DNA from: a virus
Taxonomy: Duplodnaviria; Heunggongvirae; Uroviricota; Caudoviricetes
IMG/VR virus record: IMGVR_UViG_2778261645_000001
Length of the DNA: 6,252 nt
Reading direction: 5' to 3' (one strand)
In this document: one piece after another, positions 1 through 6,252 of the stretch
How the letters are laid out: every line of letters begins with the position of its first letter
Numbering within the stretch: the stretch's first letter is position 1
The notes under the pieces: model-generated
Seen by the model: the letters and a program-made list of their open reading frames with translations, nothing else
The model's database searches: none
What the model was told of the DNA's origin: nothing
Translations under genes and position numbers: made by a program

Positions 1-60
1 GATGATCTGGCAGCCTGAGTTCACAGATAAAACACTCTCCAGGAAACCCGGGGCGGTTCA
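1..60 (+). mobile_element. Right terminus (IRR) of an IS3-family insertion sequence, IS629/IS1203/IS3411-like; the body of the element lies upstream of the window
   Basis: Positions 36-60 (ctccaggaaacccggggcggttca) are the imperfect inverted complement of 6193-6216 (tgaaccgccccggaaatcctggag) at the other end of the window. Ends in the TG...CA dinucleotides typical of IS3-family ends. Matches my recollection of the IS629 right end. GC content is visibly higher than in the flanking cargo. Confidence 0.75.
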
Positions 61-3345: not shown

Positions 3346-3555
3346 TTAGTCTGAGACTATTAACCCCATCTCACTATGAAATTGACTAAACCAGCTTTTT
3401 GTTACTGAGGTTTTTAGTGTGAAAGATGGGGATTGCATAATCAGATAGATGCCATCATTATCAATGTCGCCCCATCCACTATGTACATCAATTAGATTTC
3501 GAAAATATTTAAAGGCTTTGTCTGTTTTAAGTTTGAGGGTGAATACTTTCTTCAT
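3346..3555 (-). CDS. Hypothetical protein (69 aa)
   Basis: ORF track gives 3346..3567 with a TTG start. The ATG at 3555-3553 has GGGGGAAAGA immediately upstream and forms an ATGA start/stop overlap with the upstream 76-aa gene, indicating translational coupling. Confidence 0.55.
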   Translation of the reverse strand: MKKVFTLKLKTDKAFKYFRNLIDVHSGWGDIDNDGIYLIMQSPSFTLKTSVTKSWFSQFHSEMGLIVSD

Positions 3556-3782
3556 TCTTTCCCCCAATTCTTAATGAGTTCATAGGCCCGTTTAAATTGA
3601 GTCGGGTCACTATAATCAAGCTCGATATCCAGTGACTTTAATTCATAGCGTAACTGCTCAATTTGATGTGGCTTTAGTCTTTTCTTGTTACGGTCAAGCG
3701 TAACATCTTCATATTCTTTTGAGCGGGTATCTTGCCTGATTAGATGTGATGCCAGTCTATAAAATTTGTATCTACATAGCAT
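3552..3782 (-). CDS. Hypothetical small basic protein (76 aa)
   Basis: ORF track gives 3552..3815 with a TTG start. The ATG at 3782-3780 is preceded by a consensus Shine-Dalgarno AGGAGG with a 5-nt spacer, and overlaps the stop of the upstream gene by one base (TAATG). Confidence 0.65.
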   Translation of the reverse strand: MLCRYKFYRLASHLIRQDTRSKEYEDVTLDRNKKRLKPHQIEQLRYELKSLDIELDYSDPTQFKRAYELIKNWGKE

Positions 3783-4054
3783 TAAACCTCCTGTAGCAAA
3801 TTGTTTGGGTGGCAATTTCTCTTATTACCATCCCTGAAGATAATCTTTTTAGTTGCCTGAACTTCATGATGCAAAAACCAGATGACATACTTCACATAAT
3901 AATCACGAGTGCCATAACGAATCATTGGATTACCGTAAGCATCATCTCTTGTCTTAACCTCTCCGCCATCAATCCATTCAAGCATTCCTGTTTCGTAATT
4001 AATCATGAAGTAAGTTGCAAAGAACCGTTTAATATCATCTCGCCATTGCTTCAT
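3782..4054 (-). CDS. Small HNH_3-like (phage HNH endonuclease-like) protein, 90 aa, possibly catalytically degenerate
   Basis: ATG at 4054-4052 with GGAGGT about 7 nt upstream. The C-terminal stretch YYVKYVIWFLHHEV...IIFRDGNKRNCHPNNL resembles the HNH_3 signature (h-H-x-D-G-N-K-x-N-N-x-x-x-N-L), but Arg replaces the His that normally precedes DGN. The protein ends right after NNL. Confidence 0.45.
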   Translation of the reverse strand: MKQWRDDIKRFFATYFMINYETGMLEWIDGGEVKTRDDAYGNPMIRYGTRDYYVKYVIWFLHHEVQATKKIIFRDGNKRNCHPNNLLQEV

Positions 4055-4056
4055 AA

Positions 4057-4335
4057 TCAGACCTCCAGAGACAGCTTGCGAATCTTGATGCTCAATAGAC
4101 GGGCAATATCAATTTTAAAGCTGTTAAGTCCCTTCAAAGTATCTAAAGCGTCCTGAGTAATTCGGATGTGTTTACGACCTTTAGAAACTGGATATTTAAG
4201 TAAATCCGACTCAGTGACCTCTTTAGCAATTGCAAGCTGCATAACAGTCTGATGAGGCAAGCTACTAGCTCGTTTAATTCTGGTAAGCTCGTTAAAAGCT
4301 TCCTCTGAAATACGGGTTAATGTGTGTTTATTCAT
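4057..4335 (-). CDS. Putative ribbon-helix-helix (Arc/CopG-like) DNA-binding protein, 92 aa
   Basis: ATG at 4335-4333 directly abuts the stop of the upstream gene (TAAATG), with AGAGGAA about 7 nt upstream. The N-terminus HTLTRISEEAFNELTRIKRASSLPHQTVMQLAIAK fits a beta-strand, helix, helix RHH pattern. Assignment is by pattern only. Confidence 0.4.
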   Translation of the reverse strand: MNKHTLTRISEEAFNELTRIKRASSLPHQTVMQLAIAKEVTESDLLKYPVSKGRKHIRITQDALDTLKGLNSFKIDIARLLSIKIRKLSLEV

Positions 4336-4893
4336 TTAAAATTCCTCTGTAACTAAATACGGGTCAAACTCGAAATCTGGTTGCTCGTTTTCCATTGGCT
4401 CAATATTCCCAACGGCAATATGATGTTCAACAATACCAATTAGCTTTGCACACATTACAGCAAGCAATGCACAATAGGCATCGGTTGGTAATTCGTAGCT
4501 AAGTCTGGTTGCTTGTCGCTGAAGATGATTTGTCACGGTAGCTGAGTTAATTTCATCAAGGTTCTTTAGAAGATAAAATAGTTTTTTGTTGTATTTCGGG
4601 TGGCCTTCACTTCTACAGAATCCAATGAAAATATCATCAAGCTTACTTGGTAGTTGCTCGTAGCTGTCGAAGTTAGCCAAATAATTTTTGATGCTGTTCT
4701 TTGTTGTTTTGCGTACTGACATATAACGACTCCTCGGTGTAATTGCCCGAATTACTTCGTCAATGCCTTTGCGTTCTGCTCTGGTGAATTTGGGTACTTC
4801 GTGGCTGGTGGGGGAGTTTGTGTAAGCGTAGGAGTTGTGCTTGTTGCGTTCTCTCGATGCCTGAAGCATCGCTCTAAATTCTCTGTCGTTCAT
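4336..4893 (-). CDS. Hypothetical protein (185 aa), promoter-proximal first gene of the small-gene operon
   Basis: ATG at 4893-4891 with AAGGA about 12 nt upstream. It sits about 45 bp downstream of the -10 of a near-consensus promoter. Acidic C-terminal tail (ENEQPDFEFDPYLVTEEF). No domain recognised. Confidence 0.7.
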   Translation of the reverse strand: MNDREFRAMLQASRERNKHNSYAYTNSPTSHEVPKFTRAERKGIDEVIRAITPRSRYMSVRKTTKNSIKNYLANFDSYEQLPSKLDDIFIGFCRSEGHPKYNKKLFYLLKNLDEINSATVTNHLQRQATRLSYELPTDAYCALLAVMCAKLIGIVEHHIAVGNIEPMENEQPDFEFDPYLVTEEF

Positions 4894-4942
4894 TCATAAG
4901 CCAGTCCTTATAATTGTTAATTCTCTGTTAACCATATATACA

Positions 4943-4971
4943 ATACTAGCAGTTTCAAAGACTAATGTCAA
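4943..4971 (-). promoter_or_regulatory. Near-consensus sigma70 promoter for the leftward small-gene operon
   Basis: On the minus strand: -35 TTGACA (revcomp of 4966-4971), a 17-bp spacer, -10 TAGTAT (revcomp of 4943-4948). Correctly placed upstream of the 185-aa gene start at 4893. Confidence 0.6.
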
Positions 4972-4978
4972 GCATTTT

Positions 4979-5008
4979 TTAACATTTCATTAACATCTGT
5001 GGTATAAT
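4979..5008 (+). promoter_or_regulatory. Rightward promoter with extended -10, divergent from the operon promoter
   Basis: -35 TTAACA (4979-4984), an 18-bp spacer, extended -10 TGgTATAAT (5000-5008). Back to back with the leftward promoter; the two -35 elements are 7 bp apart. Confidence 0.5.
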
Positions 5009-5124: not shown

Positions 5125-5222
5125 CAGACCTCTTCAATCGCTCTGTAACGAGTTAAACGGCCTCTTCAGGTCAACTCATAAGGTCAGGTACTTTTTTGTG
5201 TCAGAATGCGATTGAGAGCGTC
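5125..5222. repeat. Copy 2 of repeat A
   Basis: Same conserved left and right blocks as 3198-3318, with a shorter, divergent centre. Lies about 115 bp downstream of the rightward promoter; its right block ends about 5 nt before the AGGA ribosome-binding site of the 5238 ORF. Confidence 0.6.
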
Positions 5223-5237
5223 TTACAAGGAAAACTA

Positions 5238-5414
5238 ATGGTAAATCTCCCTCCTGAACTGGGGTCACCTGATGTATGGGCTGGTGGAGGTATTGGCCTT
5301 ATTTCAGGTCTGCTGCTTCGTTACGTCCTTGTCAGAGTGCTTGTTGTCTTTAAACTGTTCGGTCGTACATGGACGCTTGACCTTAAGGATAATGACCACA
5401 CAGACCCCCGCTAA
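5238..5414 (+). CDS. Candidate small hydrophobic (single-transmembrane) peptide, 58 aa
   Basis: ATG at 5238 preceded by AGGA with a 7-nt spacer. Product MVNLPPELGSPDVWAGGGIGLISGLLLRYVLVRVLVVFKLFGRTWTLDLKDNDHTDPR has one hydrophobic segment of about 23 residues. ORF track reports it as 5196..5414 from a TTG start. Local GC is higher than the surrounding cargo. A weak CCCC/GGGG hairpin (5429-5452) follows the stop. Confidence 0.3.
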   Translation: MVNLPPELGSPDVWAGGGIGLISGLLLRYVLVRVLVVFKLFGRTWTLDLKDNDHTDPR

Positions 5415-5985: not shown

Positions 5986-6192
5986 TTAGCTCAACCTTTG
6001 AACAATCTTGTAAGTGGTGCTTAGAGGCATTCTTAGCGATTCTGCGATGCTCTTGATGGGTTGCCCTTGGTCATACATTTTAATCAACCTGTCAAGCGTC
6101 TGTGCATCGTGTATATGAGGTCTTCCACGTAAACCACCCCTATTAACCACGGCAAGTAAAAGCATTGTGTCACCACAATAGATTGTCTGGGT
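5986..6192 (-). pseudogene. 3' fragment (68 codons plus stop) of a small serine recombinase (resolvase/invertase family), truncated at the IS boundary
   Basis: The minus-strand frame open from 6192 to the stop at 5988-5986 translates to TQTIYCGDTMLLLAVVNRGGLRGRPHIHDAQTLDRLIKMYDQGQPIKSIAESLRMPLSTTYKIVQRLS. The GRP followed by ...G-x-x-I-x-x-I-A-x-x-L-x-x-x-x-S/T-T-x-Y-K pattern matches the C-terminal HTH of resolvases such as gamma-delta, Hin and Gin. The catalytic N-terminal part would have lain where the IS now sits. Not in the ORF track because it has no in-window start. Confidence 0.55.
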
Positions 6193-6252
6193 TGAACCGC
6201 CCCGGAAATCCTGGAGACTAAACTCCCTGAGAAAGAGGTAAACAGGATGACT
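6193..6252 (+). mobile_element. Left terminus (IRL) of a second IS629-like element, including the orfA ribosome-binding site and start codon (ATG 6247-6249)
   Basis: TGAACCGCCCCGGAAATCCTGGAGACTAAACTCCCTGAGAAAGAGGTAAACAGGATGACT matches my recollection of the IS629 left end and orfA start (MT...), with one or two differences. It is the inverted complement of 36-60. Same orientation as the copy at the window start. Confidence 0.75.

Follow-up and report, generated by a model that had tools for sequence, protein, structure and literature searches.

Does a small protein with the finger motif of a phage homing endonuclease still cut DNA, has it been put to another use, or is it what remains of a decaying gene? 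This question is raised by an open reading frame (ORF) on the minus strand of a 6,252-nt stretch of DNA from IMG/VR record IMGVR_UViG_2778261645_000001, assigned to Caudoviricetes; the whole of that stretch is called the window here. The ORF encodes a protein of 90 amino acids (aa), MKQWRDDIKRFFATYFMINYETGMLEWIDGGEVKTRDDAYGNPMIRYGTRDYYVKYVIWFLHHEVQATKKIIFRDGNKRNCHPNNLLQEV, to which we refer as the HNH-like protein. A first-pass annotation of the window, made from its letters, had described the product as HNH_3-like and had proposed an inactivated or repurposed HNH fold. In the current study its relatives, predicted structure, catalytic positions, conservation and genetic setting were analysed. 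The gene is kept intact by purifying selection, and its product is consequently most likely a small non-catalytic DNA-binding protein.

Homology to I-HmuI and the catalytic positions

The protein is identical to WP_000816067.1, which carries the RefSeq name 'HNH endonuclease' and is the product of the same gene in Escherichia coli E47. Comparison with Pfam gave a match to PF13392 (HNH_3) with E=7.6e-5 and 22.7 bits, just below the curated cut-off of 24.8 bits, in which residues 52-86 are aligned with profile positions 1-36 of 46. No match to PF01844 was obtained at E<=1. The first-pass annotation had named both families for such a comparison; one was found, short of its threshold, and the other was not. 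Matches to the HNH families of PHROG were weak, and NCBIfam and PADLOC gave no match.

Relatives of the protein are few. An ortholog which we call type B (P0011; the allele in the window is type A) is 41% identical to the HNH-like protein (E=3e-17 by HMMER) and passes the Pfam HNH_3 cut-off at 33.4 bits. P0014, P0016, P0018 and P0019 also pass it, the relatives scoring 27.6-49.8 bits. An exhaustive HMMER search of 1.84 billion representatives points to a small family, with no more than 14 proteins at E<=1e-3. A word-index homolog search found only near-identical sequences from Escherichia and Shigella, tblastn detected no relative in 50,697 phage records, and a scan of a genome collection with a narrow alignment found one locus only, in E. 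albertii. When the family profile was compared with the PDB, the top match was I-HmuI (1U3E), aligned over I-HmuI residues 17-89. The family profile was needed to reach I-HmuI; a PDB sequence search with the single protein gave chance matches only (antibody light chains, xylanase).

The structure predicted by AlphaFold2 (predicted local distance difference test score, pLDDT, 95.3; predicted template modelling score, pTM, 0.87) was compared with known and predicted structures using Foldseek. In the PDB, I-HmuI (1u3e_M) was the sole good match (prob 1.00, E=1.5e-3, TMq 0.60). In BFVD there were 60 matches at E<=1e-3, and those that have names are nearly all phage HNH or homing endonucleases; TMq was 0.62-0.88 among the 50 listed matches. 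By the profile alignment, and by Foldseek with the predicted fold, residues 1-63 correspond to the N-terminal region of I-HmuI, whose β-sheet reads the DNA major groove (PMC3384342). Beyond residue 63 the model has no helix except a 3-residue turn at 83-85 (DSSP). The ββα metal finger considered in the first-pass annotation is thus predicted in part, with the β-hairpin present and the α-helix absent. The 90 residues contain no C-terminal DNA-binding module of the NUMOD, helix-turn-helix (HTH) or AP2 type.

The HNH-like protein shares with I-HmuI (PDB 1U3E, from Bacillus phage SPO1) the N-terminal helix, the antiparallel sheet, the second helix, the hairpin with the pattern x-x-D-G-N-K-x-N...N-L and the structural Asn. 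Unlike I-HmuI, it has Ile72/Phe73 in place of Asp74/His75, is 90 rather than 174 aa long, and has neither the Asn-bearing helix nor the helical and helix-turn-helix C-terminal domains. It also resembles the HNH_3-AP2 enzymes of phages and prophages (P0022-P0031, and the product of L002 4416-4940), with which it shares the motifs 'YDPxTG...W' and 'Y.AHRLAW', the finger, 14-26% identity and occurrence in the same type of genomic island. These enzymes possess, and the HNH-like protein lacks, the motif D-H-x-[DN]-[GT] (R-H in one), the helix start N-L-R-x-A-T-x-x-x-N and the AP2 domain. The Pfam, ortholog and AlphaFold2/Foldseek evidence places the ORF and its likeness to HNH_3 beyond chance, and the homology to HNH_3 (I-HmuI-type) homing endonucleases is real. 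A spurious similarity, the contrary outcome envisaged in the first-pass annotation, was not found: type B passes Pfam, and the best structural match is I-HmuI.

In I-HmuI, His75 is the general base and Asn87 the structural Asn (PMC3384342, PMC2816704). The essentials of a His-Me finger are the His on strand 1, an Asn or His at the N-terminus of the helix, and a D, E or H preceding the strand-1 His (PMC5714182, PMC3384342, PMC2816704). Residues were mapped from alignments with canonical HNH_3 proteins and I-HmuI, which hold 23 sequences, 11 of them canonical (10 proteins plus I-HmuI). Val73 of I-HmuI falls on Ile71, the metal ligand Asp74 on Ile72, the general base His75 on Phe73 and Lys76 on Arg74; Asp77, Gly78 and Asn79 of the finger turn fall on Asp75, Gly76 and Asn77, and the structural Asn87 and the following Leu88 on Asn85 and Leu86. 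Opposite Ile72-Phe73 the canonical HNH_3 proteins have D-H in nine cases and R-H in one, and the His is kept in all ten. Phe73 is found in every type A allele seen. The earlier proposal that Arg stands in place of the catalytic His was therefore off by one residue, since Phe73 occupies the His column and Arg74 is the usual Arg or Lys (present in 7/11 canonical sequences). The annotation had also allowed for a catalytic His that aligns elsewhere and is intact; the column is indeed shifted by one residue, but what fills it is Phe73. The column of Asn85 is invariant in 23/23 aligned sequences.

The end of the finger is missing as well. The motif FRDGNKRNCHPNNL, residues 73-86, is followed by four residues, LQEV, and the protein terminates with Val90. 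The statement in the first-pass annotation that the protein stops right after NNL is inexact by these four residues, while the point behind it holds: the helix with the metal-binding Asn is absent. In canonical members that Asn lies 8 residues past the Leu of N-L, and the HNH-like protein ends 4 past Leu86. The last 10 positions of the HNH_3 profile, including the helix with the metal-binding Asn (Asn96 of I-HmuI), have no counterpart. No frameshifted continuation of the HNH helix was found downstream in any of the three frames, and the idea of a split gene was rejected on this ground. Three elements of the His-Me active site (the His, the Asp and the Asn-bearing helix) are accordingly absent in the alignments, and loss of catalysis, as predicted from them, is well supported. 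With all three missing, the protein would be unable to cut DNA by the His-Me mechanism.

We consider it very unlikely that the protein nevertheless remains a nuclease or nickase, either through non-canonical residues (His82, His62/His63) or through a partner that supplies the base and the metal site in trans. Departures from the canonical residue are known, as R.PacI has Tyr for His and HpyAV H295A retains ~1% activity (PMC5714182, PMC2816704). In type B the catalytic position is still a His (I-H-R-N-G-N), and the chain ends in Asn. The genes also bear the signature of a mobile cassette, namely very low diversity within each type, mosaic flanks and differing insertion positions of types A and B. 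However, type A is missing three catalytic elements rather than one, and Phe can serve neither as base nor as nucleophile. His82, the nearby His in CHPNN that the first-pass annotation had suggested might act instead, lies where N-N-R-x-x-N-L has its consensus Arg; type B has Arg there and other relatives vary, and His82 was rejected as a replacement base. Cys81, the only Cys, is Phe in the close homolog P0005, and His62 and His63 lie in the helix ahead of the finger. The candidate partner gene downstream varies between islands (76-, 66- and 128-aa genes) while the HNH-like gene stays constant. Types A and B do share with free-standing homing endonucleases the trait of being optional genes at varying intergenic positions; the apparent want of catalytic residues in type A counts against placing it with the active enzymes of that class.

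Conservation of types A and B

Among 5,426 complete E. coli genomes, type A is full length in all 67 carriers, at 95-99.3% nucleotide identity. The 8 distinct DNA alleles differ at 12 codons, 8 of them synonymous and 4 with replacements, and the ratio of nonsynonymous to synonymous polymorphism (pN/pS) is 0.14. Two of the replacements fall in the last three residues; the other two, V54L and N84D, are the only ones in residues 1-86. Nucleotide diversity over nt 1-240 of the gene (3815-4054) is 0-0.019, compared with 0.1-0.27 in the upstream genes and 0.3-0.4 downstream, which makes this the most conserved stretch of its neighbourhood.

Type B is a 95-aa protein that has Ile before the catalytic-position His and ends NLMQVRDFKRN. 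It is present in 226 of the complete E. coli genomes, about three times as many as type A, is full length in all of them and is annotated 'HNH endonuclease'. Its pN/pS is likewise 0.14. Synonymous divergence between the two types is saturated (pS 0.77), yet both keep a short ORF (90 and 95 aa). Type B is like type A in belonging to the same operon and island family and the same length class, in its early end after N-L and in being under purifying selection. It differs in the His at the catalytic position, in passing the Pfam cut-off and in lying on the other side of an o71/orf73-family gene: in otherwise collinear islands type A stands before this gene and type B after it. The genes that flank the two types are mosaic between islands, and within-type identity amid these mosaic flanks is 95-99%.

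These observations bear on whether the gene is simply a functionless relic, left when a free-standing homing endonuclease gene entered the degenerating stage of a cycle of invasion, decay and loss, and still open by chance. As expected of such a remnant, the gene product has none of the catalytic residues and lacks what would be the C-terminal half of a normal HNH_3 enzyme, and a full-length HNH_3-AP2 gene is still found in some islands (L002 4416-4940). Broken variants occur in some genomes in the form of frameshifts, an insertion sequence (IS) insertion and deletion fusions to an o71-like gene, and the island copy in the window is itself cut by IS629 on both sides. Against a remnant stand the low pN/pS in both types, the near invariance of residues 1-86 with variation concentrated in the last three positions, and the ORF length that is kept despite 41% identity and saturated synonymous sites. 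Full-length genes in 67/67 type A and 226/226 type B carriers, the standing of the gene as the most conserved stretch of the region, and the lack of any helix remnant in other frames point in the same direction. We conclude that the gene is not a decaying remnant and is kept by purifying selection, which argues against a drifting pseudogene; a functionless remnant is in our view unlikely. Of the two possibilities named in the first-pass annotation, inactivation is borne out, with a fuller loss than had been noted. Given the purifying selection, repurposing fits better than decay, although the DNA binding that was suggested for it is inferred.

Recurrence of the shortened module was also seen in three metagenomic proteins of 290-295 aa (P0014, P0016 and P0019; L003 and L004). 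In each, a His-less module (F/Y-R-D-G-N/D) occurs twice in tandem, and the later copy ends 3-10 residues past N-L. This arrangement suggests that a helix-less HNH_3 module may be a recurrent, stable unit outside Escherichia.

Three further observations concern the same genes. Two of the broken variants, P0002 and P0010, found in Logan and NCBI contigs, show recombination between the two adjacent genes. The low diversity is part of a longer block, 3815-4227, with values of 0-0.03 versus 0.1-0.4 in the flanks, and the conservation of this block extends to synonymous sites (pS 0.068 versus 0.24-0.26 in orf92/orf185). It may reflect recent horizontal spread of a cassette among diverged islands, or constraint at the DNA level. 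An overlapping RNA or repeat element was rejected as the source, since neither an Rfam match nor meaningful repeats were found that could explain the low synonymous diversity of the region. Finally, the canonical HNH_3-AP2 gene in some islands (L002 4416-4940, minus strand; L018 1947-2468) encodes 174 aa with W-I-D-H-I-D-G-D ... N-L-R-E-V-T-K-E-Q-N and lies beside the Dam methyltransferase gene on the opposite strand.

A probable DNA-binding role

We believe that the HNH-like protein is probably a non-catalytic, DNA-binding derivative of an I-HmuI-type homing endonuclease, comparable to the MH1 domain of Smad proteins. According to this proposal it would be a stand-alone, shortened form of an enzyme of His-Me finger group 2 (HNH_3) that has kept a helix, a β-sheet of the major-groove type, a further helix and the β-hairpin that bears the structural Asn. 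On this view, the general-base His, the metal-binding Asp, the C-terminal DNA-binding modules and the α-helix that carries the metal-binding Asn have been lost. The product would be made as a small non-catalytic DNA-binding protein from the orf185-orf92-HNH-like array of an ~11-kb serine-recombinase island. DNA binding, and with it a regulatory role, is inferred by analogy, because the retained part carries the sequence-reading sheet of I-HmuI and because Smad MH1 provides a precedent. We also count the tandem His-less modules of P0014, P0016 and P0019 in favour of DNA binding.

The Smad MH1 domain (His-Me finger group 16) is catalytically dead and keeps the DNA-binding β-sheet surface common to I-HmuI and I-PpoI (PMC5714182, PMC3384342). 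The HNH-like protein has the marks of this dead, DNA-binding class in that the catalytic His is lost without a substitute Tyr and the sheet fold is kept in the predicted structure. In both proteins the catalytic region has decayed and the sheet remains, DNA binding being presumed in the case of the HNH-like protein. The two are not alike in other respects. The HNH-like protein has no Pfam MH1 match, and MH1 is a zinc-stabilised domain within a larger, eukaryotic protein.

Several points weigh against this proposal. The protein is only mildly basic, with an isoelectric point (pI) of 8.7, and the basic residues of the sheet (K34, R36, R46 and R50) are not conserved in type B. Tight binding by I-HmuI depends on several more domains; a piece of 90 residues might accordingly have low affinity or bind only with the help of a partner. 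The existence of broken variants (P0002-P0004, P0006, P0007, P0009 and P0010) means that the gene is dispensable for the cell, and the island copy in the window is interrupted by two copies of IS629. The alignment from which AlphaFold2 built the model was also shallow (22 rows) and had canonical HNH_3 proteins among its rows.

Some of the same facts would suit a different use of the fold, as a protein-binding module recruited, for instance, against a component of a Felixounavirus-type phage or for an island protein, in satellite-like exploitation or in defence. The modest positive charge and the difference in basic sheet residues between types A and B are compatible with it. The island's tape measure gene, and a neighbouring gene whose product is 73-74% identical to its Felixounavirus counterpart, make an interaction with such phages plausible. 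On the other hand, there is no precedent for an HNH_3 domain as a protein-binding module, the part that is retained is exactly the DNA-reading part of I-HmuI, and the tblastn search of phage records gave no homolog. We regard recruitment for protein binding as rather unlikely, and a DNA-binding derivative as the probable identity of the HNH-like protein.

The first-pass annotation had also raised the idea that HNH proteins next to packaging genes assist terminase, while remarking that no terminase was visible. The remark is correct, for the window and the intact island copies are alike without terminase and portal genes. The idea itself does not apply: the protein belongs to the I-HmuI/HNH_3 lineage, has no PF01844 match and has no terminase beside it. 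Terminase-associated HNH endonucleases (PF01844, GVE2 HNHE type) are described as having His-Asn-His and a [CxxC]2 zinc site and as being encoded next to cos and terminase genes (PMC3592412, PMC5304195). The HNH-like protein is like them in being a small phage-related protein of the HNH superfamily; unlike them, it has neither the zinc site nor the neighbouring terminase gene.

The protein should not be filed as an HNH endonuclease. The RefSeq names 'HNH endonuclease' and 'HNH endonuclease family protein' cover types A and B in about 290 complete E. coli genomes, and for type A the name almost certainly overstates the function because none of the His-Me catalytic elements remains. Since catalytically dead His-Me fingers and homing endonucleases in decay are each known already, the novelty of an HNH_3 module that lacks the helix, stands alone on a bacterial island and is kept by selection is modest; what novelty is left belongs mainly to the island. 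A literature search found no description of the HNH-like protein, of dead bacterial HNH_3 modules or of a Felixounavirus satellite. The protein would provide a compact bacterial case in which the DNA-recognition module of a homing endonuclease is kept by selection after the nuclease has been lost, by the same route as Smad MH1. Alleles of the Phe type and of the His type are found in the same islands and offer a natural pair for studying the role of the module without catalysis.

The island and the neighbouring genes

The features of the window, together with loci in related islands, are collected in Table 1. The HNH-like gene is tightly packed with its neighbours. A GGAGG ribosome-binding site, read from the sequence, precedes its ATG by 7 nt, the stop codon of orf92 (4057-4059) lies 2 nt ahead of the ATG, and its own stop codon overlaps the ATG of orf76 in the sequence TAATG. 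This spacing indicates a tight gene array, orf185-orf92-HNH-like-orf76, of which orf185-orf92-HNH-like apparently forms one operon. The good ribosome-binding site and the close contact of start and stop codons with those of the neighbours also speak for a functional gene. Promoter and terminator scans gave nothing above shuffled expectation.

Table 1. Positions of features in the window (unless another locus is named), with strand and remarks
Feature	Position	Strand	Remarks
IS629, right end	1..59	plus	truncates island tape measure gene
Tape measure gene, N-terminal part	21-1259	minus	cut by IS629
orf76, downstream gene	3552..3782	minus	slot variable among islands (76-, 66- or 128-aa genes)
HNH_3-like ORF, type A allele	3782..4054	minus	ATG start, 90 aa + stop
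Residues 69-90, His-Me finger remnant	3785..3850	minus	KIIFRDGNKRNCHPNNLLQEV; predicted strand 71-73, loop, strand 86-88
Codon of Asn85	3800..3802	minus	structural Asn; sole retained HNH-motif residue
Codon AGG, Arg74	3833..3835	minus	aligns with Lys76 of I-HmuI and with R/K of canonical HNH_3
Codons ATC-TTC, Ile72-Phe73	3836..3841	minus	positions of I-HmuI Asp74/His75
Residues 1-63	3866..4054	minus	N-terminal helix, four-stranded antiparallel β-sheet, second helix (AlphaFold2)
orf92, upstream gene	4057..4335	minus	pI 10; packed tightly against HNH-like gene
Ribosome-binding site GGAGG	4062..4066	minus	7 nt 5' of HNH-like ATG
orf185	4336..4893	minus	first gene of the array; no family match
Dam methyltransferase gene, C-terminal HTH part	5986-6165	minus	
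Second IS629, left end, including orfA start	6192..6252	plus	direct orientation; truncates Dam methyltransferase gene
Type B loci	L002 8001-8288; L016-L020		
Island tape measure/Dit-like region	L002 10315-13284; L021 3752-6777		

Two repeats of the motif (I/L)R(I/V)(S/T)xxAxxxL in orf92 suggest a tandem ribbon-helix-helix protein that may bind DNA; its family matches are faint only, to VapB antitoxin and DndE models. The repeats can also be written as of the 'T/HxLTRISEEAFxxL' / 'HIRITQDALDTL' type. Neither orf185 nor orf92 gave a match when its sequence was searched against the PDB.

The window holds a 6.1-kb segment between directly oriented copies of IS629, a layout like the interior of a composite transposon. 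As IS629 truncates two genes, the island copy in the window is defective. Intact islands are ~11 kb long and carry a gene for a large serine recombinase; islands of this kind occur in about 5% of complete E. coli genomes. They have integrated at two or more sites, one of which lies between tonB and yciI (E. coli E47 and Q5) and another in a DUF72 gene near cmoA (ARS-C301). The gene order begins with variable cargo (often Dam), orf185, orf92, the HNH-like gene and small variable genes, and continues with orf109, orf235-250, a 70-aa gene, the tape measure gene, a gene for a 256-aa 'Dit-like' protein and the large serine recombinase gene. No capsid, terminase, portal, sheath or tube genes are present in the intact island.

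The tape measure protein of the island is 32% identical to its Felixounavirus counterpart. In Felixounavirus the tape measure gene is followed by a gene whose product shares 73-74% identity with the 256-aa Dit-like protein, and the two genes are neighbours in these phages as they are in the island. Two adjacent tail genes common to the island and to lytic phages like Felix O1 give the island its wider interest. It is conceivable, though we hold it to be doubtful, that the islands form an undescribed family that acts as a satellite of, or as a tail-assembly decoy against, Felix O1-like phages, and that the two HNH-like alleles are domesticated DNA-binding modules of homing endonucleases, with a role in controlling the island or in targeting, but not cutting, the DNA of a helper phage. 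If the island proves to be a satellite or a defence element, its small proteins would be candidates for functions in control or interference.

Two other parts of the window deserve mention. A small hydrophobic protein (MVNLPPELGSPDVWAGGGIGLISGLLLRYVLVRVLVVF...) is encoded at 5235-5414 on the plus strand, within the ORF 5196-5414, and is conserved in the islands (o62 in L002). Its gene is divergent from the orf185 operon, and back-to-back promoter-like sites lie between them, at 4931-4971 on the minus strand and 4979-5008 on the plus strand. The layout is like that of a switch region accompanied by a small membrane protein; this protein might be a toxin or serve in exclusion. The ORF at 1659-2411 on the minus strand encodes 250 aa without a Pfam or PHROG match. 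Its homologs are named 'transposase' by RefSeq in several E. coli genomes, and nothing matched it apart from PDC-M63B, a candidate defence protein in PADLOC, which did so weakly (E=2.2e-4).

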